Virus record (IMG/VR): IMGVR_UViG_3300027336_000062
DNA from: an uncultured virus (IMG/VR IMGVR_UViG_3300027336_000062)
Lineage: Duplodnaviria; Heunggongvirae; Uroviricota; Caudoviricetes
DNA: 64,000 bases
Direction: 5' to 3' (one strand)
The notes beneath the pieces were generated by a model, which was not told where the DNA came from, did not search any database, and saw nothing but the letters and a program-made list of their open reading frames with translations. This document shows, one piece after another, positions 23,609-38,853 of the stretch. The translations under genes and the position numbers were made by a program. Within the stretch, counting starts at the first letter, position 1. Every line of letters begins with the position of its first letter.

Positions 23609-25813
23609 ATGGGACTTTTCAGTAGCAAATATGTGACCCAGGTTGGTACGTCTGTGACTCGGGTCATGGAAGACGACGCGCTTCCAAACGCCATCAAGAC
23701 AGGTTCTCTTAAAGCGTTCTTCAGAGAAGGTGAGCTGACCGAGTACGTGATGGAAGAGCTGGCATCCAGCATTGGTGTTCGTGCCGAGCGGATGTACGAC
23801 TACGCAGAGAACCACTACGTCCATGGTTTGCCTTCAGGCGAGATCTACTCAGCAACCCAGGGCAGGGCACAGGTAGAGGCCATCATCGAAGCTGCAGAGG
23901 GTCAGCAAGTTCTGATGAAGTACTCCAACTTCGGGCCACCCAACACCTTGCACATCGGCTGGATGAAGCTCATCAGCCAGTACGGCTACAACACCGTCAC
24001 CAATGAGCTGGCTACGTTGTCTGCTCAAAAGGGCAAGACCGTCTACCTGGAAGACATGGTGGTCGTGGTTCCAGAGAGTCAATTCGACACGCTGGAATCG
24101 AGTGCTCTTGAGCTCTGGGGTACGTCACCTACGGCCGGCTACACGCCCAAACGAACGCTGAACATCAATGGCTTGGGTGAGCGATCGGTCTTCTCCCCAA
24201 TCGTCAAAAGCGCGACTGCTATCGAAGTGCAGCTCAAGGTGACGTATGTGTGGGAAACCACTCCCAACAATTTCAGCACCGAATCGCTGACCATTTCGAT
24301 TGCTGAATACGATCCTGCGGTTGACTACTTCCATGCAAAGTACGAAGTGAACGGTCAGCCCAAATACTGGATCTACGAGAACGACACCGGCACCTATCCA
24401 ACCTTGGATGCAGTGTTCACTGAACAACCTGCTGTGTCTGGCTCGTATTTCCCGTTTGCCTACTTCCGGTACAACAAGCAGTCGGTGATCCAGGACAAGA
24501 CAACCGATGCCTACAAGACCTCGAAGAAGATGGTCGAGTACATCGGAATGGACTACGACATGATGGCTGAGACCATCAACGAGAACCCTGACATCGCTGA
24601 TGTCGAGCAAGCCATGCTGGTCATGGCAGTGCCTGCAGTCTCCACCGACAAGATCGAGTGCCAATACCTGTTCGATTACTTCGACACCCTGCATTACGAC
24701 ATGGATGGTGGAACGTCTGCTGCCGTTTCGAATGTTGGTTCAAGGGTTTTCAGGAGAGCTTCTGAAAGCCGGTCGATTGTCATCAAGGACAAGCAGTTCA
24801 AGATGGCGCTTCAGAACACCGGCATCTACAAGCGCTTGGTAGCCGGGACGATTGGTTCTGTCGGCACCTGCACCAGTGCCTATGTAACGACATCGGAAGA
24901 AAGAGAAGTCGTTGATCAAGAGACTGGTCTTGTGTCTTCGGTGTCGGTGCCAAACAAACGGCATGTCTACAAGAAGCAGATTGCACCTGGCTTGTGTGAA
25001 GAGATCACGGTCACAGATCTGAGGATGGTGTACTGGATCTTTGGTGAGTACACGACCACGGGTGATGAGAACGACGACATTCTCCTGATCCCGATCGACA
25101 GGACTATTTCAAGACGTTATCCGATGGGAGAACGTGAGCATTTGTATGCTCGGTCATTGCACTTCGTTTTCAACAGCCGGGTGGTCACGAAGGTCAAGTG
25201 GTATCAGACCGGTGTGTTCAAAGCCATCCTGATCATCGCTGCAGCGATCATGTCGCTGTATGACGGTGGCTGGACTCTGGCAACGATTCTTACGACGGCA
25301 GGTATCCAGGCATTGATTGTCACCATCATCGTGACGATGGTTGTTGGTGAGATCTTTGCAACTGTCTTTAAGCTGTTTGTCAAAGTCTTTGGTGCTGACG
25401 TTGCAATGGTGCTGGCCATTGTTGCCGTGCTGTATGGCGGCTACCAGATGATTCAGCATGGCTCGATCGCTGGTGCACCGTTTGCATCTGAGTTGTTGAT
25501 GCTGTCTTCTGGTTTATCTCAAGCAGCACTGAGCGCCAAGATGAATGATCTGATGGGCGAAGCAGAAGCCTTTCGTTTGCTGGCTGAAGAAAAAACTGAA
25601 TTGTTGGATAAAGCAGAAGATCTGCTGGACAACACTTCGTTTCTAAGTCCATTTGTGATCTTTGGCGAGAAGCCAGAAGACTTTTATAATCGGACTGTGC
25701 ATTCCGGTAACATCGGAATAGTGGGTATCAATGCAATCTCCTATTACGTGGACATCGCACTCACCCTTCCCAAATTGAATGACACGTTAGGAGAAGAAAT
25801 CTATGCCACCTAA
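23609..25813 (+). CDS. N4 gp53-like protein
   Basis: MGLFS start, KVKWYQTG.F followed by several hydrophobic helices, terminal LTLP; synteny. Confidence 0.82.
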   Translation: MGLFSSKYVTQVGTSVTRVMEDDALPNAIKTGSLKAFFREGELTEYVMEELASSIGVRAERMYDYAENHYVHGLPSGEIYSATQGRAQVEAIIEAAEGQQVLMKYSNFGPPNTLHIGWMKLISQYGYNTVTNELATLSAQKGKTVYLEDMVVVVPESQFDTLESSALELWGTSPTAGYTPKRTLNINGLGERSVFSPIVKSATAIEVQLKVTYVWETTPNNFSTESLTISIAEYDPAVDYFHAKYEVNGQPKYWIYENDTGTYPTLDAVFTEQPAVSGSYFPFAYFRYNKQSVIQDKTTDAYKTSKKMVEYIGMDYDMMAETINENPDIADVEQAMLVMAVPAVSTDKIECQYLFDYFDTLHYDMDGGTSAAVSNVGSRVFRRASESRSIVIKDKQFKMALQNTGIYKRLVAGTIGSVGTCTSAYVTTSEEREVVDQETGLVSSVSVPNKRHVYKKQIAPGLCEEITVTDLRMVYWIFGEYTTTGDENDDILLIPIDRTISRRYPMGEREHLYARSLHFVFNSRVVTKVKWYQTGVFKAILIIAAAIMSLYDGGWTLATILTTAGIQALIVTIIVTMVVGEIFATVFKLFVKVFGADVAMVLAIVAVLYGGYQMIQHGSIAGAPFASELLMLSSGLSQAALSAKMNDLMGEAEAFRLLAEEKTELLDKAEDLLDNTSFLSPFVIFGEKPEDFYNRTVHSGNIGIVGINAISYYVDIALTLPKLNDTLGEEIYAT

Positions 25814-26375
25814 TTACATGAGCATGTCTGGCTATGGCCAGGGCTATCAACCTTTGGCCCCATTTGCCTTGACGCAACCTCAAGCGCTTCCTTTGACCCA
25901 ACCAGGTGGCTTTCCCAGCTGGATGCCTGAGCCTGTTGCACCCGTTCAGCGGTCTTTTGCTACCGCTGCAGCAGTTGCTCCGGCGTTTAACTACGAGACG
26001 GACATGGCTGGCTTGATGCCTACGTCAACGCCTTTGGGTGGTACTGATCTGAGCAACGCTCAAATACTGCAGTCTGTAAATGCTCCCGGAAGCGGAAGCA
26101 TGTGGGACAGGTTCTTTAACACTCGAGACCAACAGGGTTGGGGTGGACTGGCTTTGCAGGGTGCCTCGTCTTTGGCCAACCTGTACATGGGCATGAAGCA
26201 GTACGGCCTTGCCAAAGATCAGTTGGCCTTCCAGAAGGACTCGTTCAACAAGCAGTACGACGCCAACAAGTCTTTGACTAACTCCCGGCTGGAAGATCGT
26301 CAAGCACGCCGTGTGCTTGAAAATCCAAACGCTACGGGCGTGGCTGACTACATGGCAAAGTGGGGAGTCAAGTAA
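25803..26375 (+). CDS. N4 gp52-like small ejection/virion protein
   Basis: GLA..GASSLANLY.GMKQYGLAKDQL...TNSRLEDRQ.RR; synteny. Confidence 0.78.
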   Translation: MPPNYMSMSGYGQGYQPLAPFALTQPQALPLTQPGGFPSWMPEPVAPVQRSFATAAAVAPAFNYETDMAGLMPTSTPLGGTDLSNAQILQSVNAPGSGSMWDRFFNTRDQQGWGGLALQGASSLANLYMGMKQYGLAKDQLAFQKDSFNKQYDANKSLTNSRLEDRQARRVLENPNATGVADYMAKWGVK

Positions 26376-27652
26376 TGGCCCAACCCATCACATGGCAGAC
26401 CATCAACGCACCCAGCTTCGGTGAAGCCAACCGCCTTATGGGCTTGGCCCAGCAGTCGATTCTGGGTGCTTTTGATAATGGCAAGACTGCGTTGGCAGAT
26501 GCACAGGCCTTTGACAAAGAGCTGTGGAAGCGTCAGGACCAGCAAGCAACCCAAGATGTTCTGGGCAAAATCTATCAGGCTCAGACCGTTGATCAGATGA
26601 ATGCCTTGAACCAGTCAGGAGTACTGGATCAAGCAACTGCTGCCAATGGTGCTGTGATTGATCGTGCTGCTGTCAACGCTATCCGAGACGGCCGACCTGA
26701 ATTGCTTCAGACCCGTGCAAAGCAAGCAGGTGAGTTTACCGACTGGACCACGACCCGTGAGCAACGTCCAATCGTCAACGGGATCATGACGGACATCTAC
26801 AGCGGAAAGACAGATCAAGCGCAAGCAGCGCTTGCTGCCAATCCCAACCTGATGAATGCACCGGAGATCCAAAAGGCCCTGACTGACTACAAGCGAAAGC
26901 TTGTGACCCAAGGTTATGAAGACACCCGATTTACGTGGGACGACCAGGCTCAAAAGTGGAAAGCCGCTGACGCTGCACAGAAAGAGGTCATGCGTCCGTT
27001 TGAACCACTGAAAGCACAAAGTGAGCTGGATACAGCCGCACAACAACGTGAAGCGTCAAAGGCTCAAGCAGATCTGGCAAGAGCTCAAGCAAATAAGATT
27101 GATGCAGACGCCAAAGCAGCTGCCAATGCCAACACACCTGGAAGCCTGATCGATTCCCGCTACAAAGAGCTGGTTGCCAACGGGCCATGGGACAAAGGCA
27201 CGCTCGATACTGCAGAAGGCAAGAACGCTTTTCTGGACGGGCTCAAAAAAATGGGCCTGCCCTCTGCTGCAGTCGATGACGTTGTTGCTCAGGTATACAA
27301 GTACTACGGCAAAGGTGCTGTAGTTGGCTTTGATGAAAAAGGCCAGCCGATCCGTGCACCTCTGGGTGTATCGACTGCGTTGCAAGCAGTGGGTGAGGCT
27401 GGTAGCAACACAATGGTTGACAGTCTCTTTGGCTGGAGTCGTCGGGGCGATCAGACTGCCAATGCGTTGGACAAGATGTTTGGTGTCTACTCGACTGGCG
27501 AAAAGAACCCTGGATGGCAAGCCACGAAGGACAACGAACTGATCCAGAAGATGCAGGCCACTCTTGCCTTGCGCAATCAGCGTGAAAAAGTGCTGGCTAC
27601 TCCTCCTGAGCAAGTCAATTACAACGGCAAGAACCCAAAAAAGCAGAAGTGA
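26375..27652 (+). CDS. N4 gp51-position ejection protein (0-frame product, 425 aa)
   Basis: MAQPITWQTI start, Ala/Gln-rich, no Cys; between gp52 and vRNAP; TAATG coupling. Confidence 0.78.
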   Translation: MAQPITWQTINAPSFGEANRLMGLAQQSILGAFDNGKTALADAQAFDKELWKRQDQQATQDVLGKIYQAQTVDQMNALNQSGVLDQATAANGAVIDRAAVNAIRDGRPELLQTRAKQAGEFTDWTTTREQRPIVNGIMTDIYSGKTDQAQAALAANPNLMNAPEIQKALTDYKRKLVTQGYEDTRFTWDDQAQKWKAADAAQKEVMRPFEPLKAQSELDTAAQQREASKAQADLARAQANKIDADAKAAANANTPGSLIDSRYKELVANGPWDKGTLDTAEGKNAFLDGLKKMGLPSAAVDDVVAQVYKYYGKGAVVGFDEKGQPIRAPLGVSTALQAVGEAGSNTMVDSLFGWSRRGDQTANALDKMFGVYSTGEKNPGWQATKDNELIQKMQATLALRNQREKVLATPPEQVNYNGKNPKKQK

Positions 27653-27696
27653 CGGCACAACCACCGGCCCCAGTTGAGTCTGGGGCGGTGCCGTCA
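27637..27696 (+). promoter_or_regulatory. Candidate -1 programmed ribosomal frameshift signal
   Basis: A_AAA_AAG in the correct phase (27637-27643), 6-nt spacer, stem TGACGGCAC/GTGCCGTCA enclosing GCCCCAG-TTGAGT-CTGGGGC. Confidence 0.7.
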
Positions 27697-28368
27697 ACTC
27701 AGGTGAACGGTGCTCCTGCGCCCATCAAGCCAATTGCACAGACACCAGAAGGCACCTTTGTTACTTCGAAGGGTGCTCCTGTCAAAGCCAATGCCACGTT
27801 GGCAATCGATGGTTCAAGCGGTGCTCCAGTCGGTGTGACTCGGAACCTTCAAGTTCCGAAGGAACTGAGCAACGGCAAGCCAACCACCTTGGTTCAAGCC
27901 GATCCGAAGAACCTGAAGAGTGGTGATGCGTTCAAAGCCACGATGACTTGGGTCAAAGACGGAGACACGCTGGATCTGTCGAATGGTGTGGTTTGCCGAG
28001 TCAATGGCATCGATGCTCCAGAGACAGCCAAGCCCAATAAAGGTCAGCCTGCTCAGGCGTACTCCGCTGAAGCAACAAAGACACTTGAGCAAATGGTTCG
28101 AAACAAGGAACTGACAATTCGCATTGTTGAACCCCCAAGCGGCAAGAACTACGATCGTGCCTCTTGCATCATTGAAGTCGAAGGCAAAGACGTTAACGTC
28201 GCCATGCTTCAACAGGGAGCTGCTTGGTTCTGGGGTTCGTTTGTCAAAGACTCGTTTCAGTACCAGAAAATGCAGGCTGCAGAATCGAAAGCGAAAAAGA
28301 ACAAGGTTGGTTTGTGGAAAGATCCAAATCCGGTCTTTCCAAACACTTTTCAACGACAATACCGGTAA
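27649..28368 (+). CDS. Staphylococcal nuclease (thermonuclease) domain; probably the -1 frame extension of the upstream gene
   Basis: VKDGDTL, RVNGIDAPE, YDR, VNVAML..G.AW, AK..KVGLW motifs; Pro/Ala-rich linker in front; no clear RBS. Confidence 0.88.
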   Translation: MTAQPPAPVESGAVPSTQVNGAPAPIKPIAQTPEGTFVTSKGAPVKANATLAIDGSSGAPVGVTRNLQVPKELSNGKPTTLVQADPKNLKSGDAFKATMTWVKDGDTLDLSNGVVCRVNGIDAPETAKPNKGQPAQAYSAEATKTLEQMVRNKELTIRIVEPPSGKNYDRASCIIEVEGKDVNVAMLQQGAAWFWGSFVKDSFQYQKMQAAESKAKKNKVGLWKDPNPVFPNTFQRQYR

Positions 28369-28380
28369 CGGTACACATCA

Positions 28381-28411
28381 AGAAAGCCGGGGTAACTCCC
28401 GGCTTTTTCTT
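28381..28411 (+). terminator. Rho-independent terminator
   Basis: AAAGCCGGG-GTAACT-CCCGGCTTT-TTCTTT. Confidence 0.75.
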
Positions 28412-28446
28412 TAGAATAGTCGCAATCCCCCAGACAGAAAGTCAAT

Positions 28447-31400
28447 ATGGCTGAATTCGACCTCAATAGCTATTTCTCCAAGCGCCAACAACTGTTTGGG
28501 CAAGACAAGGTAGATGCTTTGCAGAAGGCATCTGCAGAGAAAGTTCAAGCTCTCCAAGAAAGCCGAGCCCGAGATCAGGCTTACCTAAACAGCCCTCAAG
28601 CACAGATTGATCGAGCTGTTGCGGAAGGCCGTACCTGGGGCGAGTTTGGTCAAGACGTTGGTTTGTCTGCCATTCAAGGCGTTGATGCCTTGGCCAAGTT
28701 GCCGGCAATGGTCTACGACAAAGCCACGGAAGGAAACTTCTATGGCACCGAGACTCAGAAGATCAGTGCGATGTCCGATGAGCGTGAAAAGCTCAAGTCG
28801 GCATTTGCACAGGCCAACAACAAGCAAAAAGCTGATGCGGCCAAAGCTGCTGGTGAAGCAGCCAAAGAGTACTTTGGTGACGGTGCCCTTGGAACTGGTG
28901 CACAGGTTGCTGCCGAGTTCGGTAGTGCTTTCTGGGAAGCTGCCAAGGATCCAGGCAGCATTCCTGAGTTCTTGGCTCAACAAGCTGCTCAGCTGGGCGT
29001 CATGGGCAAGGTTGGCCGAGCATCGGAGCTCGCAGCTAAAGCTGCTGTCAAAGCAGCTCCAGTCCTTGCGGCTACAAAGGCTGGCCAAGCCGCAGTGAAC
29101 CGTGTCGGTACGGCCGGTGCAGTAGGCACTGGTGCTGTGCTTCAGGGCACAGACGTTGGTTCGGACACCATGACTCGCCTCATGGAGCTTCCACAGGCAG
29201 TCTGGGATCAAAACCCTCAGTACAAAGTCCGAGCCTCTGAAATCGGTGCGGATGCTGCCAAGCAGGAGATTGCATCTCGTTTGGCTTCGGAAGCTACGGT
29301 GCAAGGTGCTGCGACTTCGTTGCTGTCCGCTGCCTTGCCTGGCGGTTCGTCTGTTGAGAAGGCCCTGGTCGGCAAGTCTCTGGGAGGCTTCAAAGCTGTT
29401 CCCAAAGCCTTTGTCGGAGAGTCGGGTCAGGAAGGTATCGAAGAGGGTACTGGCAAGTTCTTTGGCAATGCCGGGGTCAAGCAGATCGACCCAACTCAGT
29501 CACTGTCTGAGGATGTGGGTGCTGCAGCTGGCCAAGGCGCTTACATGGGTGGCTTGCTAGGTGCTGGTATCAGCGGTGTGCAGACAGCCGGAAACGCTGC
29601 TGCCATTGCTGCCGCTGAACGTGCGGCCAAGGTTCAGGAGGAAGTGGCCAAGAAGCAGGATCTGAGCGCTGCAATTGCCTCAGGTGATGTCTCGGCTTAC
29701 CTGGATCCCAAGAGCCCTTCCTTTGCCCCTGAGAAGGCCGTGCAAGGACTGTTTGGCAACAGCCAAAAGGAAGACACGACACCGGAAGCCAAACAGACCA
29801 ACTTCGTCAAAGCCGAATCGATCGTTGCTGACCTAAAGAGCGAACGAGAAAAGCTTCGGCTTGAGCTTGATTGGACCAATCCAGACAAGCTTCAAGCGCG
29901 TCTTGATGCTGGCAGGGACGGCTTCAGTCCTGAGCTTATTGCAGCGACAGAAGAAGCTATTGCAACGCTTCGTGCTACTCCTGCTGATCCGAATGAGGTT
30001 GCAGCGCTTGAAGCCAAAGCAAAAAGCATGGATCGAAAGATCCAGCTGTCCGAAACCATTCTCAAAGACTTCAACAGGGAAGGCCAAAACCAGCAAGTTG
30101 ATGTTGAGGCTGAAGTAGCCAAGCTGAAGGACGCTGATCCTGTGGTGTCACAGGGTGCGGCCGACAACATCATCAACCTGTCCATGAAGTCCCCAGAGCT
30201 CGTGGATCGAAAGCTGGCTGCATCACTGGTCAGAGACACCACGAACAACCTGACGGACTCTCAGAGGGATTACCTGCGTGCGTTCTCCGAGGCTCGAGTT
30301 GCTGAAAACACCCTGAAGACCATGGGTGACGTTTCCAAAGAGATCTTCTTTGGATCGGCCAAAGACAAGCAAGGAATCAAGTACACCGGTCTGGCCGAGT
30401 ACCGAGCCAATGTAGCTGTGACGCTGGCTGCTGGAAACCAGAAGTCTGCTGACCGTGAACTGGGTTTGCTGACCAATTTTGAAACAAGCCATCAAGCCAA
30501 AGCAAAAGCTGCTTCTGAGGCCTATGCAGCATTCCTGAAAGATGGAATCGAACGTCGTGTCGTCAGAAACAAAGACGGCAGTTGGAAAGTTGAACAGGGT
30601 TTGTTTGAAAGCCCTGCTGCTCGTGTTGAAAACGGTGGCATGGATATTAAGGAGAATTCTCCAAAGATCGTCGCTGAAACTAAAACAGAAGCAGATGCAA
30701 TTTCCAAGACTGCTGCCGAATTGAAGGCTGCTTATGCAGTAAAGTTTGGTTCAGGTAATACCGGTGGAGCCAGTAATGTCCAGAACGTACCGCAAGCACT
30801 CGAAGGAATTCAAAGCGCCGAAACGCAGCTTCGATCCGAAGCCTCGACGCAAGATGGAGCCGCTGAAGGAACTGCAGCTACCGGAGGAGGAGCCGCTGCC
30901 GACGTTCAAGCCGATGCAACAGCTGGAACTGATGCTGTAGCTCCTGCAGCTGACGTTGCTCAGGAGGCTCCGTCCTCTGCTGCGAGCACTGACAACACTG
31001 CGACAGCTCCTTCAGTTGAAGGTCAACTGCAGTCTGGTGAACAGGCTACAACGACCCCTTCTGCAACCGTTCCAGATCCTGCTGTTCAGGCCGAGCCTGC
31101 TCAAAAAGCGGAACAAGAGGTCGCTGCAAAGGAGTCTGGAAAGCTCTTCGCCAACCATCAAGCATCCCCGGAGGGGACTCCTCTCAGCCAGCGCCTGAAC
31201 GCGATTGCAGACTTCTTCACCCAGAGTGCTGGACGTGAAGATGTGGGATCACAGCGTCCATTGGTTGCAGTCAAGAACCTGCTGAGCAAGCTAATCTCGA
31301 AAGAGGTCAGCCCTGCAGATTTTCTCAAGAGCACCGATCCTCTGACTGCTCGTCAAGACAGTGTTCTGTCTTTGTTCCAGAAAGCTGCTCAACGGTGGGA

Positions 31401-34400
31401 TCCCATCATTCGTACTGGTTTGAAACGCCAGGCCAATCCTGCTTTCAACTACAAGCATTTGATGACGTACTTCCAGTTTGAGAACTCGGAAGATGGAAAG
31501 TTGGATGTCGATGAGAATTTGAAGACTGCCATGTCTGCAGCCGTCTTTCAATTTATTGCTGACAACGCAAACGGCAAGGGCTACTCGACACCGGAGCAGA
31601 TCAACAAGTTTTTGGGAAACCCTGAAGGCTCTGAGATTGACCCGAAAGTTTGGGGATTGATTGGCCAAGGCATTCCTCAAGCTTCAATGATTGAGGAATT
31701 GGGAAACAGCATCTATGACATGCTTGGTTTTAGGCCAAGTCTACAGGCACCCAAGGATTTCGAGCCCCGATTAAAATCAGTGCTGGGTACGCAAGCGCTT
31801 CGTCTGATGCTTAGCACTCCTGGTTTGCTCAAACGCAAGACAGTCAATGCAGAAGACCTGTCGTTCAGTGAAAAGACAACCACCAAGAGCGAGAACACCC
31901 AGTTGTTTTTCTACACCTTTGTGCGTGACGAAAAAACAAAAGAGCTGAATGCCTTTGCAAAGCGTGTAGTGGATACGAACAAAGGAACTGGGACGCTCCT
32001 GAACAAGCTGTTTGGTGTCGAAAGCTCGATCACTTTCCCTTCGCTGACTCCTGGTGCTTACGATCAGAAGAAAGCCGCCAACAGTCAGATGGGTGTGCCG
32101 GTTGAGCTGTATGACGCATTGAAACATTCCAGCGAGCTTCCCTACGAAGTGCATCAAGGGATGTGGAACCTCTACAGCAAGCTGGGCTACGAATGGTTCA
32201 GTAAAGTCATTGGTTTGCCGGAAGGCGATGTTGATACTGTGCACATCTCACAGCGTCCAGCTCATGAAGCCAAGACAGACAACACGTTTAGAGTCATCGA
32301 CAACTTCATTACGTTTGTTGAAGATGTGCTGAGTCCTTCAGAGAATGGCGTAGATACACTGTTCTACTTTGTGCCTGCAGCATGGAAAAACCAACGCTCT
32401 GGTCTGACATCTAATGGGGTCAACCCCAACGCGCATAAGCAGCATCGCTACTTGGTGACTCAGACAGCTTGGAAGAACAAGGTTGATCTGACCAACCCCG
32501 ATGCAGTGAACAAGCTGTATTTCCATCTAGGTGAAGCACTTGGTTTGAAAGGCACCGACCAGCAAATCATCGAGCTCTTGAACGGCGTCGATGGTCAGGG
32601 AGGTTTGCGTCAAGAGCCTGCATTCCAAGCAGCACTAGCTGCAATGGAAAAAGCCCGTCAAGGCGAAGAGCTGACTGATGCGGACAAGGCCGCAATAGTT
32701 GACGGCCAAGACATGCAAGGCTTGAACGCCATGCTGGCCATGCTCGAGGTCACTATTGCTGAGCGAGATGGCTTGGATTCAGTTGAGGTTCAACTACCAG
32801 CAGGTGTGGATGGTGTCAGTAACGGAGTGATCAAAGGCCACTTGATTCTTGGAGCAGCCAACTCGTCGGACGAGATGCTTAAGGTAATGAATCAAGGGGG
32901 CATCTACGAGGTGGGTAGTGCTTATTCTGACTTTGCCCAATGGCATGACCAGCCTGGCAACCTCGATGTGTACGAGCGAGCCACGGCCGAAATGAACGAT
33001 CGTATGGCCAACATGGTCGAGTACATGCCTGAAGTCGTGAATGCGTTGTGGGCAGTGACCCGTCCTTTAATGGATGGCGACAAAGTTACTTCAGACGGCC
33101 GTAAGTTTGCCAAGGGCGTTGTGCCTCCAATCATCTTTGGATCGTCGTTTGAGAATGCCGTCATGCGACTGCAAGAGAACTTTGCCGAGAGCGTTCTCAA
33201 TGGCTTCACGAAATATGCCAATAAACCCGCAGAGCTAGATGCGTATGTCAAGGCGCTCAACACTCTGATTGCTGAAGGCGATCTTAGTGCTCCTTTGATT
33301 CCAGAAGGTAAGGACGGTGAGTACCACTTGAAGCGCAACTTGCTGCCGGCTCAGAACTCTGCCATTGCCTCGGTCTTTGACCAGACCTTGGGTATGTCGA
33401 TGCAGGATGCGGTTGAAACTACCTATGGCCCATTGCGTCGTCAGCAAACTGCGTTGATCGATACAGCCAACCTGACGTTCAATTTGTACAACGCTGTGCT
33501 GGATGGTGAGCGTGAAGCTGCCTTGCAAAATGAAGACGTAGAAAAAAACAAAGTCGGAGAGCCAATTCACGACATCACTAAAGAAGCTGATGGTCAGATC
33601 AAGAAAAAGCTGAAAGGCATCTTGCCTGTCATTCACAGCTTGATGTCAAAGCGTGATGGCCGAATCGGTACTGGCATGCTGATGTCACGATCCAGACTGG
33701 TTGAGCGAGACAGTCCTTTGTACAAGAACGAAGTGCAATTTGGCATTCCGGTGCCGGGAGTCGTCAGTACGATTACATGGAAACCTGTTTCCAGCATCAA
33801 CAGTACTTCTCGGGTTACTGGAGACGTTGTTCCTGGTGCTGCCATGGGAACGATGGTTGTCCACTCGACTGACAGCGCTGATTCTCACAATGTTCAGATG
33901 AAGCACAGCACGTTGAACAACCACGATGAATTGGTGACTGGCGTTAATGACATTGGTTCAGTGGCTCAGGACTTGAACAAGGCGTTTTTCCAGACTTCAC
34001 TGGAATACTCCCCTCTTGAAGAGGTGTATCACTCGTTGCGTCGTACCGTTGAAGGCATGGCTAGACTAACCAAATCCGAAGGCGGTTTGTCGATCCAAGC
34101 CCAAGACAACCTGGTGGACATGCTTGCAAAGAAAGCCTGGGCAATGCGATCAGGAAACGATGTGCCGAGTATTGGCAGCGTTCTGGTCATGCTGCTCAAA
34201 GACGCTAAGGTCATTGCGTTTCAGGCTGACAACATTCGTCTGGAAACCTTGAGCAAGATTGCCACGGTGAATCAGTTTGCTTACGAGGGTCAAGGCTATG
34301 TTGTTACTGATGCTGACCGAGCAAAAGCGTTGAAGATGAAAGCTGAGCTGACACCTGAAGTACCCGCTTCTGTGGTGGCTCTTGCAACTGAACTCACTGA

Positions 34401-37400
34401 TTCATTGAAGGCGGCTGAGCAACGTCGGATCAAACGCCTGTCGGATGCAAAGAAAGCCAAAAAGGCTCAAGTTCAACAAGTTCTTGCTGAGGCTGAATTT
34501 GACTTGTCTGCAGTAGAAGAACAAGCCCCTGCCTTTAGTCCGTTTGGCTTGTTTGGAAAACCAAGAGTCGAGAGCGACAAGGACTTGGTGAAATTCTTCA
34601 AGTCCAATCCTGCAGCTACAGCGCAGCAAGTCATCGATCTTCTTAGTGCACAAGGTCGTCTTAGTCCAGTAAATCAAAAACTGCTCATGCTGGTGAGCAA
34701 AGTTGTAAGTCCTGATTTGGCAATTAATTTGATTACTAAGGAGACTGATAAAAATGGAGTTCTGGAAGAACCAACTCAACCGTCTCGTGCTTGGTTTGTA
34801 TCGAAGGGGGACCAGCAAGCAATCTATGTGCTGAGCACAGAGTTTGTGAATTCTGGTTTGACGGCCGAGTCCTTGCTGCACGAACTGATCCACGCTGCGG
34901 TAGCTCAAGTTATTCAGAACCCTACTGGTGATGCAGCTGCTCTGGTTGCTGAGCTGGAAGCTTTGAGAGTCAAAGCCCAGGAGTTTGCTAAGCAAAACGG
35001 CTTGACTCAGTACACAGCAGCATTGGCCGATGTACAAGAGTTTGTGGCTTGGGGCATGAGCAATCTTGGTTTGCAGCGTGATGTGCTGACCAAGATTACG
35101 ATGGCATCGAAGACTGGCAGCAACCGGTTGGTTACCGGCATGCAGAAATTTATTTCTGCACTGACGGGTCTTCTGTTTGAGAAGCCCGATGCAAACCTCG
35201 ACAACGGCCTGTCGGTGCTAGTGTCGAACGTCTCCGGTCTGTTCTACCAGGCATCTCAAAGCAAGCCAAAAACTGGCGACCTGAGTCTGTCCATGGCAGC
35301 AATGAATGCCGTGAATTCATACACGACGTTGGAAATCCACAACGCATTGGATAGCGGCTCCGTAAGCCCCCTGTTTCAGTCTCAGCTGGCCAATCTCCTC
35401 ACCGGCATCGTTGACGCGCTCCACGGCCCGTTTGGTGCGTTTGCGCAGGCATTGCGTGAGACCGAAGCCAAGACGCCGGTCGATGCTTGGGCCAAGGCCA
35501 AGGAACTGGGTGCTGCTCCCTTTGGTTCGAGCGTGCTCAGCCACATGGCAGCAAGCGAGCAGGAAGCCTTTGCCATCGAGCAGGTTGAGGCTACGGTCAA
35601 AGCAGCCTTGGATGGTAAGGGCGCACAGGCCACAACTCAGTACCGCGAGCTCTACAACCTATACACAGAAATAGAAAACAAGTTCAGCAAGGACGGTTCG
35701 GACTTCTTCAAGGGTGACTGGGCCATGGCCACACCTTCGGAGAAAGCTCATGCCAAGAGCCAGTATGACTTTGTGTTCAATCTGAAGAGTGACAAGAGCG
35801 GTCGTTCGGACTACTTGGCTCGTTTTGCTGCTTTAGGTTTGGCCCATCAAGGGTTCAACCAGATGCTTCAGGTGGCAACGGAAGGCAACGTCAAAAAGGT
35901 TCGTGGACAAGAATCGTTTGAGCAACGCCTGCGTCGCTGGTTCTCCAACGTGTTGGGAATGTTCCGTGAGCGTGTGACCAAGACTTACGCCGGTCAGTTT
36001 GCAGACAACAAGCTGCAGAGTCTGGTTGGGCAGCTGGTGGACATCGAAGCTAAGAAGCGCTCGTTGCTGCAAGCCAAGAAAGGTTTGATCAACACCGACA
36101 TGGTGGAAGACGGTGCTCGGGCAGTGACTGAAGGCATCCGGACCAAGATCGCTCAAGCGGCCGACTCGGAGTTTCTGCGTAAGCAGAAGAACACGGCAGT
36201 GCAGGTGGTTCGCAGTGCAGTAAGCACGGTCACTAACGATCGTACCGAGAAGTACATCGAGGGCATGCAGAAGTTCTACGAGCGCAACGTCCAGTCTCAG
36301 GGCAGCGTGTTTGTCAGTCTTCTGAAGGAACTTACTGGCCACAAGGAAAAGCTGCAAGCGGCGTTTCGTGCCGTGAAAAAGTTCGAAGGTGATCGTCAGG
36401 ATCAGATTGCTGGCTGGGCCAAGGATGCTCGCAAGGCATTCAGCAAGAAGCTTTCAAAGGACAGCAGCGCCAGCATCACTTCAGTAGTGATGCGGACTGG
36501 CTTGCATTACCTGACCGACACAATGTCGTTGGCTGAAATTGAGCGCCTGGTCGACAACCCGGTTGCTCAGAACCGGGCCATTGCTGAACTGGAAGCCAAG
36601 CTGGGCCACATGAAAGCCGAGTACGTTACTCAGATCAAAGGACTGGGCTACTACAAGGCAACGGAGCTGGTGACGGTTGAAGTGCTGATGATGAACTCGC
36701 ACTTGATCTCCAAGCTGGCTGGTACGGTTTACGAGAAGCAGATCACTGACGCGCAAGCCAAGGCAGCAGACCCGATCATCAAGCAGCTGGTGTCGCTTTA
36801 TGCACTGAAATACACCTCACGCACTGAGCAAGGTTTGGCCAAGCAGGTGTTCCGTGACGAGAATGCTCGTGGCGGGTCTGTCGGCAACGGCATCGACTTT
36901 GTGATGAGAGCGCAGAAGGCACTGGAAGCAGAAGCCTTCGAGCGTCAGTTCAGGAACAACCCTGCACTGATGATCCATGGCTTCACGCCTGAGATCTTGA
37001 ATCCTCACACTGAGTTTGTGGTGGCAACTGAGGCGGAAGGACAGGCTTTGATCGACTTTGGCTACAAGCAAGGAGCCAAGGTATCCAAGGATGGTGCTGA
37101 TCCGGACCAAAGCCAGAAGTACATCTACGTGCTCAAAGGCGCTGGTTTGGCCCCTCATGTCTCAGGTGCACTGCAGTTCCAGTCGGACACTGCCAAGGGC
37201 ACCAAGGCACATAGTGGCTATCTGAACGTCAACACCCAAGACGGCCTAGAGAACGCACAGACACAAGCCAGGTTTGATCAGAAGCTTGGTTCTAAGATCA
37301 ATACAGACCCCAACTGGGATCCTTCTCAGGAAAAGAAGAACTACACAGCGCCTCTCTACAACGAGAACGGCAAGGTGGTGAACTGGCGTTACATGATGAA

Positions 37401-38853
37401 CAAGCAGACAAAGGATGATCTGCTGCAACGAAACAATAGCTTTGATCGAGTGCTGGGTGTGTTGGGCGGTACGGTGTTCAGCAAGCCCAAGATCAAGGAG
37501 CAGAACCGTGCTGTGCTGGAAGCCTTGAAGGACATTTACAAGGACGACTACGCACTCAATGCCGAGTCGTATGTCGAGGTGGGTCCGAAGAGCAACGATC
37601 CCGAGCTCCGAAGCTTCTGGGAGCGTTTGCCTGACCAGACCAAGGAAGATGTTCGTGCAGTCTGGGGTGGTGACAGCATGAAGGTCACGGCCGACAGCCT
37701 GGATGTGGTGTTTGGTTACCGGAAGCTTTCACTGGCAGATCCGATCCGCCAAAGCCAAAAGAATAAGGCCAAGTTGGAAGCTGGCGGTGCACTGTCTGAG
37801 GCTGACAAGCAAGGGTTGATTGCTCAGAACTTTGTGCTGTCAGTCGAGTGGGCCTTGAGCACCTATGCTCGAATCAAGCTGGGCAAGTCTCAGGATGAAG
37901 CCGAGCGCTATGCCAAGCGAGCTGCAGCTTATTTGACTCGTGGTGAGCGTGCATGGCAGGAGATCGTGCGTGAGATCAAGACGATCTACGTGATCAAGGG
38001 TGTGACCTCGATGATCAACAACAACAAGAGCAACTTGACTCAGTTGTTGGCTTCAGGGGTGACGCTGAAAGCGATCCGTGAGCACATGCCTGATGCTTTG
38101 AAGAGTGCCATGGCCTACCAAGCTGACAGCGATGAGCTGCGTGAGCTGGAGAACCTGCTTGAGACCGGCTACACCCAAGGCAACGAGGCAGAGATTGAAC
38201 GCAGGATTGTTCGCTTGCGAAATGAGATTGCAATCAACCCAGCACGAGAGTTGATTGAAGCTGGCTTGATGCCTTCTATTGTGGAAGACGTTGGTGAAGC
38301 GGACGATCCGTTTTCGTACAAGACGGAGTTTGCACAGAAGACAGAACGCTTTACAGACAAGCTGAACCCGAAGGTCAAAGAGGCAGCGAAGTTTGTCTAC
38401 ATGACCCGAGACGGCAAGCTGTATAAGGCGTTGCACCAGGCCACACAGGTGAGTGACTTCGTGGCTCGATACGTGATGTACCAACACCTGATCAGCCGGG
38501 AGCAGAACCCGTTAAGCAAGGCAGCAGCAATTCAAGAAGCTGCTGATGCGTTCGTGAATTACGACATAGCCATGCACCGGAACATTCAGTTCTTGGATGA
38601 CATGGGGTTCATGATGTTCACGAAGTACTTCTTGCGGATGCAAAAGGTGCTGTTAAAGATAGGTCGTGAGAATCCTGCAAGAGTGTTGGCTTTGGCAGCA
38701 GCAGACAACTATCTGGACTTAGGATCCATCGTTCTGGACAGCTCAGCATTGGCCAAGATCGGCAACAACCCGTTTGGTATTGGTGCTCTTGGCTTCCCAG
38801 GTGCACTGGATGACCTGGCTACGGTGAAGGCAGCAATGGCCTTGGTGAAGTAA
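28447..38853 (+). CDS. Virion-encapsidated RNA polymerase (N4 gp50-like, 3468 aa)
   Basis: Size; no Cys seen on reading; motif A VDGVSNG, motif B RKFAKGVVPPIIFG, motif C NNHDEL; HELIH zincin-like motif in the C-terminal part. Confidence 0.96.
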   Translation: MAEFDLNSYFSKRQQLFGQDKVDALQKASAEKVQALQESRARDQAYLNSPQAQIDRAVAEGRTWGEFGQDVGLSAIQGVDALAKLPAMVYDKATEGNFYGTETQKISAMSDEREKLKSAFAQANNKQKADAAKAAGEAAKEYFGDGALGTGAQVAAEFGSAFWEAAKDPGSIPEFLAQQAAQLGVMGKVGRASELAAKAAVKAAPVLAATKAGQAAVNRVGTAGAVGTGAVLQGTDVGSDTMTRLMELPQAVWDQNPQYKVRASEIGADAAKQEIASRLASEATVQGAATSLLSAALPGGSSVEKALVGKSLGGFKAVPKAFVGESGQEGIEEGTGKFFGNAGVKQIDPTQSLSEDVGAAAGQGAYMGGLLGAGISGVQTAGNAAAIAAAERAAKVQEEVAKKQDLSAAIASGDVSAYLDPKSPSFAPEKAVQGLFGNSQKEDTTPEAKQTNFVKAESIVADLKSEREKLRLELDWTNPDKLQARLDAGRDGFSPELIAATEEAIATLRATPADPNEVAALEAKAKSMDRKIQLSETILKDFNREGQNQQVDVEAEVAKLKDADPVVSQGAADNIINLSMKSPELVDRKLAASLVRDTTNNLTDSQRDYLRAFSEARVAENTLKTMGDVSKEIFFGSAKDKQGIKYTGLAEYRANVAVTLAAGNQKSADRELGLLTNFETSHQAKAKAASEAYAAFLKDGIERRVVRNKDGSWKVEQGLFESPAARVENGGMDIKENSPKIVAETKTEADAISKTAAELKAAYAVKFGSGNTGGASNVQNVPQALEGIQSAETQLRSEASTQDGAAEGTAATGGGAAADVQADATAGTDAVAPAADVAQEAPSSAASTDNTATAPSVEGQLQSGEQATTTPSATVPDPAVQAEPAQKAEQEVAAKESGKLFANHQASPEGTPLSQRLNAIADFFTQSAGREDVGSQRPLVAVKNLLSKLISKEVSPADFLKSTDPLTARQDSVLSLFQKAAQRWDPIIRTGLKRQANPAFNYKHLMTYFQFENSEDGKLDVDENLKTAMSAAVFQFIADNANGKGYSTPEQINKFLGNPEGSEIDPKVWGLIGQGIPQASMIEELGNSIYDMLGFRPSLQAPKDFEPRLKSVLGTQALRLMLSTPGLLKRKTVNAEDLSFSEKTTTKSENTQLFFYTFVRDEKTKELNAFAKRVVDTNKGTGTLLNKLFGVESSITFPSLTPGAYDQKKAANSQMGVPVELYDALKHSSELPYEVHQGMWNLYSKLGYEWFSKVIGLPEGDVDTVHISQRPAHEAKTDNTFRVIDNFITFVEDVLSPSENGVDTLFYFVPAAWKNQRSGLTSNGVNPNAHKQHRYLVTQTAWKNKVDLTNPDAVNKLYFHLGEALGLKGTDQQIIELLNGVDGQGGLRQEPAFQAALAAMEKARQGEELTDADKAAIVDGQDMQGLNAMLAMLEVTIAERDGLDSVEVQLPAGVDGVSNGVIKGHLILGAANSSDEMLKVMNQGGIYEVGSAYSDFAQWHDQPGNLDVYERATAEMNDRMANMVEYMPEVVNALWAVTRPLMDGDKVTSDGRKFAKGVVPPIIFGSSFENAVMRLQENFAESVLNGFTKYANKPAELDAYVKALNTLIAEGDLSAPLIPEGKDGEYHLKRNLLPAQNSAIASVFDQTLGMSMQDAVETTYGPLRRQQTALIDTANLTFNLYNAVLDGEREAALQNEDVEKNKVGEPIHDITKEADGQIKKKLKGILPVIHSLMSKRDGRIGTGMLMSRSRLVERDSPLYKNEVQFGIPVPGVVSTITWKPVSSINSTSRVTGDVVPGAAMGTMVVHSTDSADSHNVQMKHSTLNNHDELVTGVNDIGSVAQDLNKAFFQTSLEYSPLEEVYHSLRRTVEGMARLTKSEGGLSIQAQDNLVDMLAKKAWAMRSGNDVPSIGSVLVMLLKDAKVIAFQADNIRLETLSKIATVNQFAYEGQGYVVTDADRAKALKMKAELTPEVPASVVALATELTDSLKAAEQRRIKRLSDAKKAKKAQVQQVLAEAEFDLSAVEEQAPAFSPFGLFGKPRVESDKDLVKFFKSNPAATAQQVIDLLSAQGRLSPVNQKLLMLVSKVVSPDLAINLITKETDKNGVLEEPTQPSRAWFVSKGDQQAIYVLSTEFVNSGLTAESLLHELIHAAVAQVIQNPTGDAAALVAELEALRVKAQEFAKQNGLTQYTAALADVQEFVAWGMSNLGLQRDVLTKITMASKTGSNRLVTGMQKFISALTGLLFEKPDANLDNGLSVLVSNVSGLFYQASQSKPKTGDLSLSMAAMNAVNSYTTLEIHNALDSGSVSPLFQSQLANLLTGIVDALHGPFGAFAQALRETEAKTPVDAWAKAKELGAAPFGSSVLSHMAASEQEAFAIEQVEATVKAALDGKGAQATTQYRELYNLYTEIENKFSKDGSDFFKGDWAMATPSEKAHAKSQYDFVFNLKSDKSGRSDYLARFAALGLAHQGFNQMLQVATEGNVKKVRGQESFEQRLRRWFSNVLGMFRERVTKTYAGQFADNKLQSLVGQLVDIEAKKRSLLQAKKGLINTDMVEDGARAVTEGIRTKIAQAADSEFLRKQKNTAVQVVRSAVSTVTNDRTEKYIEGMQKFYERNVQSQGSVFVSLLKELTGHKEKLQAAFRAVKKFEGDRQDQIAGWAKDARKAFSKKLSKDSSASITSVVMRTGLHYLTDTMSLAEIERLVDNPVAQNRAIAELEAKLGHMKAEYVTQIKGLGYYKATELVTVEVLMMNSHLISKLAGTVYEKQITDAQAKAADPIIKQLVSLYALKYTSRTEQGLAKQVFRDENARGGSVGNGIDFVMRAQKALEAEAFERQFRNNPALMIHGFTPEILNPHTEFVVATEAEGQALIDFGYKQGAKVSKDGADPDQSQKYIYVLKGAGLAPHVSGALQFQSDTAKGTKAHSGYLNVNTQDGLENAQTQARFDQKLGSKINTDPNWDPSQEKKNYTAPLYNENGKVVNWRYMMNKQTKDDLLQRNNSFDRVLGVLGGTVFSKPKIKEQNRAVLEALKDIYKDDYALNAESYVEVGPKSNDPELRSFWERLPDQTKEDVRAVWGGDSMKVTADSLDVVFGYRKLSLADPIRQSQKNKAKLEAGGALSEADKQGLIAQNFVLSVEWALSTYARIKLGKSQDEAERYAKRAAAYLTRGERAWQEIVREIKTIYVIKGVTSMINNNKSNLTQLLASGVTLKAIREHMPDALKSAMAYQADSDELRELENLLETGYTQGNEAEIERRIVRLRNEIAINPARELIEAGLMPSIVEDVGEADDPFSYKTEFAQKTERFTDKLNPKVKEAAKFVYMTRDGKLYKALHQATQVSDFVARYVMYQHLISREQNPLSKAAAIQEAADAFVNYDIAMHRNIQFLDDMGFMMFTKYFLRMQKVLLKIGRENPARVLALAAADNYLDLGSIVLDSSALAKIGNNPFGIGALGFPGALDDLATVKAAMALVK

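Follow-up and report, generated by a model that had tools for sequence, protein, structure and literature searches.

A probable −1 frameshift onto a nuclease at the end of a tunnel-protein gene in an N4-like phage

The 64,000-nucleotide (nt) stretch of DNA recorded as IMG/VR IMGVR_UViG_3300027336_000062 (hereafter the window, meaning the whole stretch) comes from a river-water N4-like phage. It carries a gene for a periplasmic-tunnel ejection protein of 425 amino acids (aa) in the zero frame (26375..27652, plus strand; start ATG 26375, alternative GTG start at 26360), whose stop codon overlaps an open reading frame (ORF) in the −1 frame for an enzyme of the staphylococcal-nuclease (SNase) fold. 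Are these two proteins, or do some ribosomes join them into one? The original prediction held that a dnaX/IS3-type programmed −1 ribosomal frameshift fuses the ejection protein to the nuclease. A signal conserved among relatives, and relatives in which the two parts are naturally fused in frame, support this proposal, and we consider a recoding-made tunnel-nuclease fusion to be likely. The 425-aa product would then be the short isoform and a 664-aa product the long one, sizes that follow from the coordinates as had been predicted.

The junction and the −1 reading frame

The tunnel gene ends in CCA AAA AAG CAG AAG TGA. This holds two tandem in-phase heptamers, C_CCA_AAA (27634-27640) and A_AAA_AAG (27637-27643), together the slippery site (27634..27643, plus strand), and the X_XXY_YYZ phase of A_AAA_AAG is as originally described. 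A 6-nt spacer, CAGAAG (27644..27649), follows, and its final base is the first base of a −1-frame GTG. The zero-frame UGA stop (27650..27652) forms the first triplet of a hairpin and overlaps that GTG (27649-27651) as GTGA. The 25 plus-strand frames of at least 200 codons in the window (13,072 codons) contain 16 in-phase heptamers of any kind and a single A_AAA_AAG. The slip site therefore exceeds chance expectation, being the sole A_AAA_AAG in 13,072 in-frame codons. No Shine-Dalgarno-like sequence was seen before GTG 27649 in the window sequence, in line with the earlier statement that the ORF has no clear ribosome-binding site.

The putative stimulator is a two-tier hairpin (27650..27696, plus strand), with a lower stem at 27650-27658/27688-27696 and an upper one at 27667-27673/27680-27686. 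In the lower stem TGACGGCAC (27650-27658) is exactly complementary to GTGCCGTCA (27688-27696) over 9 nt, and the upper helix, GCCCCAG/CTGGGGC, adds 7 bp inside the lower arms. The perfect 9-bp stem placed 6 nt after the heptamer and enclosing a 7-bp GC hairpin was thus correctly read. Folding with ViennaRNA gives −30.5 kcal/mol and a z-score (z) of −3.2 over 69 nt, and keeps 7-8 of the lower pairs together with the upper helix.

To a gene caller the full −1 ORF would extend from GTG 27649 to TAA 28366-28368 (27649..28368, plus strand; 239 codons), and its frame is open from 27610 on. In translation it begins with a Pro/Ala/Ser/Thr-rich linker and a conserved pre-nuclease segment (27643..27996, plus strand; about 115 codons), and the pattern P..VPK..W..P.T.V is kept upstream of the nuclease (alignment A2). 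The SNase domain occupies residues 117-225 of the ORF (27997..28323, plus strand) and matches PF00565 at E 8.7e-19, scoring 68.4 bits where the threshold is 21. In its DGDT, R, D-x-P-E and Y-x-R motifs each residue has its aligned counterpart in the Staphylococcus aureus nuclease 1f2m (E 9e-12), and the motifs are invariant in 6/6 aligned relatives (alignment A2); we take the Ca2+-ligand and catalytic residues to be D21, D40, R35, E43 and R87 in S. aureus numbering. The frame, the Pro/Ala linker and the motifs of the original prediction all held up, and we regard the domain as a predicted SNase-fold nuclease with its catalytic residues aligned.

The S. aureus enzyme (SNase, thermonuclease) shares PF00565 with the window domain, in which the residues at Ca2+-binding and catalytic positions appear conserved. 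The window domain differs from it in being only about 30% identical, in lacking a signal peptide and in hanging on a linker of about 115 residues to an ejection protein. No hydrophobic, signal-peptide-like N-terminus was seen in the translation of the −1 ORF. An AlphaFold2 model of the ORF, built on a 6-row alignment, reached a mean predicted local distance difference test score (pLDDT) of only 37.8, too low for the model to be used.

Comparison of the window with the related phage L002/L006 indicates that the −1 ORF is probably translated and constrained, and that the cassette is under an extra, nucleotide-level constraint. This is because the ratio of non-synonymous to synonymous rates (dN/dS) in the ORF is 0.078 (22 synonymous and 6 non-synonymous differences), and because the window and L006 have no differences at all in 27620-27722, the 103 nt that hold the heptamer, spacer and hairpin. 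Differences number 26 in the 249 nt that lead up to the −1 ORF and 28 in the ORF's own 717 nt, and the flanks differ at 4-10% of positions. Among the −1 lineages described below, purifying selection on the ORF persists down to 37-41% identity. A pseudogene reading of the ORF is ruled out by the dN/dS of 0.078.

The length of the A-run was checked on assembled DNA contigs (Logan) from other sequencing runs. Two further DNA runs bridge the A6 without difference (X12, 27413-28450; X13, 27541-27773), and the related phage L002, from another sample, has an identical junction though its tunnel protein is only 72% identical. The A6 is thus the same in the window, the IMG/VR assembly, L002 and the contigs of two further runs, reproduced in four independent assemblies, and does not appear to be an assembly slip.

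The signal in relatives

To gather relatives, the tunnel protein and the nuclease served as queries in scans of IMG/VR and of metagenome contigs. The tunnel scan gave 40 tunnel-gene loci, 35 readable to the stop and five that run off the contig. In 27 of the 35 there is no nuclease, and a hairpin and the virion RNA polymerase (vRNAP) gene come immediately after the tunnel gene; these, less the exact duplicates L014 and L038, form a control set of 25. The nuclease lies in the −1 frame in seven lineages compared as DNA (window/L002, L020, L022, L052, L090, L091 and L177; Pfam SNase E 1e-20 to 8.5e-16). In all seven, the TGA is preceded at exactly 6 nt by an in-phase X_XXY_YYZ heptamer; the last eight codons hold no in-phase heptamer in any of the 25 control genes, which are homologous but lack a −1 nuclease. 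The heptamer is A_AAA_AAG in window/L002, A_AAA_AAA in L022, L090, L091 and L052, C_CCA_AAG in L020 and G_GGA_AAA in L177. The codons that precede the A-type sites are CCA, GCA, GCA, GGA and GAA (Pro, Ala, Ala, Gly and Glu). They vary in amino acid and always have A as third base; what is conserved is therefore the pattern of nucleotides rather than the residue.

Two-tier hairpins of −30 to −44 kcal/mol begin 3-6 nt 3' of the heptamer in six of the seven lineages, with z of −3.1 in L020, −3.25 in L022, −5.0 in L090, −4.3 in L177 and −1.6 in L091, beside the −3.2 of the window. In a 7-row alignment, 87.4% of the cells of a 16-pair common structure can pair, against 72.1% in shuffles, and 0/500 shuffles reach the observed value. 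Compensatory changes on both sides occur at 7/16 stem pairs (2/500 shuffles), and slid controls, in which the 3' partners were moved by 1-3 columns, pair at no more than 54%. Covariation of the putative stimulator across the −1 lineages is supported by this alignment. The expectation that heptamer, spacer and covarying stem would be conserved in relatives was borne out, with the heptamer at 6 nt in 7/7, the hairpin in 6/7 and compensation at 7/16 pairs.

A profile search of 1.84 billion cluster representatives returned 152 matches at E <= 1e-30. Among the 150 matches listed, ORFs of 116-450 aa are mixed with fusions of 520-1,032 aa, and two proteins reach about 2,300 aa. A tblastn search with the window SNase ORF and L031 found no Schitoviridae phage record with this nuclease, and therefore that collection holds no cultured example.

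Very large phage proteins with a nuclease domain also occur outside the N4-like phages. Unrelated IMG/VR phages (L056-L089, e.g. L057:600-4547) carry an SNase domain within proteins of 940-1,530 aa, often preceded by an ORF that ends in an acidic EILIDEE-like tail, and the window nuclease itself matches positions 1078-1244 of phrog_8809, a profile of 2,317 positions and unknown function.

One protein or two

The linker and SNase domain are fused in frame, as the C-terminus of the tunnel protein, in L009, L019, L031/L032, L092, L093, L094/L095, L096, L097, L173, L176 and P0040. The fusions are 654 aa long in L009, 807 aa in L019 and 977 aa in L031/L032. Between core and nuclease, L019 (5001-7421) has a Glucosaminidase domain (PF01832, residues 448-563), and L031 (5001-7931; also L032) an SLT domain (PF01464, residues 393-495). 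The −1 frame of L022 (KKSPVT) aligns with the in-frame L031 (KKKSPVS) from residue 707, four residues before the GTG. Against the same protein the zero frame of L091 aligns to residues 570-709 and its −1 frame to 741-974; the partial upstream ORF of L091 gave no significant alignment with L022, because the C-terminal halves are mosaic. KKKEVT stands in frame in L009 where the −1 frame of the window has EVT. Because homology continues over the slip site, the tunnel part and the nuclease part appear to be one protein in these relatives. A word-index search for longer fused forms found a single protein, P0040, an in-frame equivalent of L052 with 97-99% identity to it.

Several of the in-frame fusions have a long A-run, with an in-phase A_AAA_AAA, exactly at the boundary of core and extension, a feature that the original prediction had missed. 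Runs of A9-A11 lie at about 6301-6311 in L009, and at aa 413 in L019, aa 705 in L031, aa 557 in L092, aa 525 in L097 and aa 452 in L176. In these lineages neither of the other two frames stays open for more than 2-6 codons, and the stop of the +1 frame is positionally equivalent to the zero-frame stop of the −1 lineages. In-frame and −1 relatives differ by essentially one A in the run. A slip in the A9-A11 lineages could therefore give a truncated, dnaX-like isoform.

In the window, most ribosomes would read CCA AAA AAG CAG AAG and stop at the UGA, making the 425-aa tunnel subunit. A fraction would pause at the hairpin, whose first triplet is the UGA, move one base backwards on A_AAA_AAG and so bypass the stop. 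These would read 241 more codons, encoding the flexible Pro/Ala-rich linker and the SNase-fold nuclease, and would complete the 664-aa isoform, so that two isoforms would be made at a fixed ratio. Because the long isoform shares its N-terminal tunnel-ring part with the short form, it could be packaged and expelled: it would be co-assembled as a minority subunit and leave with the tunnel. The nuclease would then be tethered at the inner-membrane end of the tunnel.

If the two halves were separate proteins, ribosomes would terminate at the UGA and start anew at the GUG that overlaps it (GUGA). The hairpin would hide this start and couple nuclease synthesis to translation of the tunnel gene, and the product would be a free 239-aa nuclease with no virion subunit part. 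This rival stays alive because the GTGA start/stop overlap is conserved, a point that the original prediction had not weighed: in 7/7 of the −1 lineages a −1-frame GTG overlaps the TGA and lies inside the 5' arm of the hairpin. Among 22 representatives of stand-alone length (chosen by a length of 219-264 aa and a match near the N-terminus, and examined as protein sequences only), 10 start with Met-Thr and three with Met-Ile, as expected from gene-caller starts at the GTGA overlap. Re-initiation leaves unexplained, however, why an in-phase heptamer is held at a fixed 6 nt (7/7 against 0/25 controls) and why it switches among four canonical heptamers. The GTG has no Shine-Dalgarno sequence before it, the homology with in-frame fused relatives starts upstream of it, and the start-like Val codon of the −1 lineages is an internal GTA in the in-frame L009, L031 and L092, where no start is possible. 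A free product would presumably also lack both a signal peptide and an evident packaging part. We regard re-initiation as improbable.

Two further explanations turn on the A-run itself. The split could be unprogrammed, either because the true gene is continuous (A7) or because the run varies in length by DNA slippage, phase variation or assembly error, so that the window would be an 'off' variant. The frame difference between P0040 and L052 speaks for this, as do the single A that roughly separates in-frame from −1 relatives and the homologous place of the in-frame +1 stop. However, the run in the window is only A6 and is identical in all the assemblies named above, homopolymers in L020 and L177 do not exceed 3-4, the stop is kept exactly 6 nt downstream, the hairpin covaries, and purifying selection acts on the −1 ORF down to the most divergent lineages; this explanation we judge extremely unlikely. 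Alternatively, RNA polymerase might slip on the A-run and add one A to part of the mRNAs. Runs of about nine A are known transcriptional slippage sites, as in Thermus dnaX, and relatives have long runs at the site: A7 in L022, L090 and L091, A10 in L052, and A9-A11 in L009, L019, L031, L092, L097 and L176. Yet A6, C_CCA_AAG (L020) and G_GGA_AAA (L177) are too short for efficient slippage of this kind, which needs no X_XXY_YYZ phase although all sites obey it, and a hairpin 3-6 nt downstream is a ribosomal stimulator. Transcriptional slippage could contribute where the runs are long; that it makes the fusion is very unlikely.

Ribosomal frameshifting remains the explanation that we prefer, and several observations besides the GTGA overlap weigh against it. 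No dnaX-like upstream Shine-Dalgarno stimulator was seen in the window. The z of the window hairpin is only −2.2 in wider contexts, including 91 nt, the hairpin of L091 barely beats shuffles (−1.2 in another context), and L052 has no convincing hairpin (z −0.76). L052 is in the −1 frame with an A10 run while P0040, 97-99% identical, is in frame, and therefore a change in run length or an assembly error must have occurred in at least one lineage. GTGAC is invariant, and the cassette is common by descent across the lineages and does not represent seven independent inventions. A maximum-likelihood tree built on the last 190 residues of 15 SNase-region rows is star-like, with 9/12 inner branches open; it may be compatible with one origin and gives no count of frame changes. 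RNA contigs do not bridge the A-run (X15, 27645-28000; X17, 27427-27610 and 27708-27903). The single metatranscriptome contig over the nuclease ORF (X15) begins at 27645, just 3' of the A-run.

Cargo, known systems and gene neighbourhood

Where would an ejected nuclease act? SNase enzymes are typically Ca2+-dependent and extracytoplasmic. For this reason, and because related extensions carry peptidoglycan hydrolases, we lean tentatively towards the periplasm as its location after ejection. The alternative, to which we give less weight, is that it is threaded into the cytoplasm to attack host nucleic acid. Its target could be the nucleic acid of the host or of competing phages, or foreign nucleic acid that is entering the cell.

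The closest models for such a mechanism are well known. In Escherichia coli dnaX (tau/gamma), as in the window, a stem-loop follows A_AAA_AAG at a distance of about 6 nt, and one gene gives two isoforms at a set ratio, as proposed here. The dnaX slip truncates its protein, whereas the slip in the window would add an enzyme domain; the in-frame A9-A11 relatives, in which the −1 frame stops after 2-6 codons, would act in the dnaX direction. In the IS3 family (IS911 orfA-orfAB) the upstream ORF likewise has A_AAA_AAG near its 3' terminus, the zero-frame stop lies close behind in or beside a structure, and the −1 slip joins a catalytic domain to the upstream protein, as we propose for the window. 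Unlike there, the gene that carries the signal in the window codes for a structural virion protein of a lytic phage, no transposase is involved, and the structure, a two-tier hairpin, is simple.

A −1 slip near the 3' end also makes minority, C-terminally extended structural proteins in the lambda G/GT tail chaperone and the T7 capsid 10A/10B, as proposed here, and the G_GGA_AAN site of L177 resembles the lambda G-T site. The lambda and T7 extensions are structural; here the extension would be a nuclease (in some relatives with peptidoglycan hydrolases) and the carrier an ejection protein. T7 gp16, with its N-terminal lytic transglycosylase, is an ejection protein that brings an enzyme domain into the cell envelope, as we envisage for the tunnel fusion. 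It differs in that the enzyme sits on every copy, the ejection protein is a different one, and it acts on peptidoglycan, not on nucleic acid.

DEV gp72 and N4 gp51 occupy the same position beside the vRNAP gene as the tunnel gene of the window. The structural papers describe these tunnel proteins as 12 copies surrounding the portal, which after ejection form a tunnel of 9-10 subunits (PMC11445570, PMC13434306). According to the latter, peptidoglycan hydrolase activity seems to be absent from the ejection proteins of N4 and is left to 'other factors' (PMC13434306). The relatives described here differ from the N4 proteins in carrying SLT or glucosaminidase plus SNase, which suggests that such extensions may be the source of ejectosome peptidoglycan cutting in some Schitoviridae. 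The word 'nuclease' is absent from the searched text of the DEV and N4 structural papers, and 'frameshift' from that of the N4 paper (PMC13434306); in PMC13001222, 'frameshift' denotes a host mutation. The literature searched, which did not extend to subscription journals and supplements, yielded no description of a frameshift or nuclease in a Schitoviridae or N4-like ejection protein, none of a programmed ribosomal frameshift in any phage ejection protein, and, among the papers listed, nothing relevant on a virion-associated thermonuclease of a podovirus.

If the fusion is made as proposed, podovirus ejectosome subunits can carry enzymatic cargo at a dose set by translational recoding, and a nuclease reaches the host envelope at infection, before any phage gene expression. 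The ejection machinery would gain a function that goes unmentioned in the searched text of the DEV and N4 structural papers. 'Stand-alone' SNase ORFs beside vRNAP genes in N4-like metagenomic phages would have to be entered in annotations as the −1 continuation of the tunnel gene. More broadly, and as a conjecture somewhat short of an even chance, the boundary of core and cargo may be a family-wide recoding switch in these N4-like phages, the cargo being a nuclease, sometimes with a peptidoglycan hydrolase. The slip would add cargo in the −1 lineages and remove it behind the A9-A11 in-frame runs, so that every lineage would make short and long subunits and load sub-stoichiometric enzyme into the ejectosome. 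Single-A indels would flip the state, as in P0040/L052, making the cargo dose evolvable or even phase-variable.

Homologues of the tunnel protein itself begin with MAQPITW. A profile built from 35 sequences, the 425-aa protein and its 34 homologues, matches DEV gp72 (8vxq_R) at E 3.6e-8 over profile positions 1-380, and the N4 '66 kDa protein' (11mn_A) at only E 0.098. We regard the gene as a homologue of the DEV gp72/N4 gp51 periplasmic-tunnel ejection protein, and the earlier label of a 'gp51-position ejection protein' is upheld by the DEV match together with the adjacent vRNAP gene. By tblastn the tunnel protein had only weak N-terminal matches, to Pseudomonas phages Littlefix and 98PfluR60PP, and the region had no DNA match in 50,697 phage records. 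Tunnel proteins are mosaic (P0002-P0039): an N-terminus of about 115 residues is kept, and middle and C-terminal modules are exchanged among relatives. The KKQK tail of the window also ends at least three different C-terminal modules, and many others end in other Lys/Arg-rich tails.

Downstream, a 3,468-aa gene (28447..38853, plus strand) matches phrog_2206 (E 0, residues 28-3464) and is the vRNAP gene, which identifies the window phage as N4-like (Schitoviridae-type). The tunnel and vRNAP genes lie in an ejection cassette whose order agrees with the conserved cassette given in PMC13434306 (gp50, vRNAP; gp51, tunnel; gp52, outer-membrane complex). By synteny with that cassette, the 190-aa gene 5' of the tunnel gene (25803..26375, plus strand; phrog_2646, E 1e-23, function unknown) is probably at the position of N4 gp52/DEV gp73, the outer-membrane complex. 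The ORF list places a 734-aa gene before it (23609..25813, plus strand).

Between the nuclease ORF and the vRNAP gene a GC hairpin followed by a T-run, terminator-like by eye, lies at 28388..28413 (plus strand). The same elements directly follow the tunnel gene in nuclease-free relatives such as L007. A scan with promoter and terminator consensus sequences gave no plus-strand site in 26000-28700, including the hairpin and T-run at 28388-28413. The sequence TTTAGAATAG follows the hairpin and T-run just 5' of the vRNAP gene (28388-28425 in the window; also L007, L009 and L006). Hairpin, T-run and TTTAGAATAG are near-identical in relatives with or without the nuclease, and may represent a terminator plus a promoter-like element.

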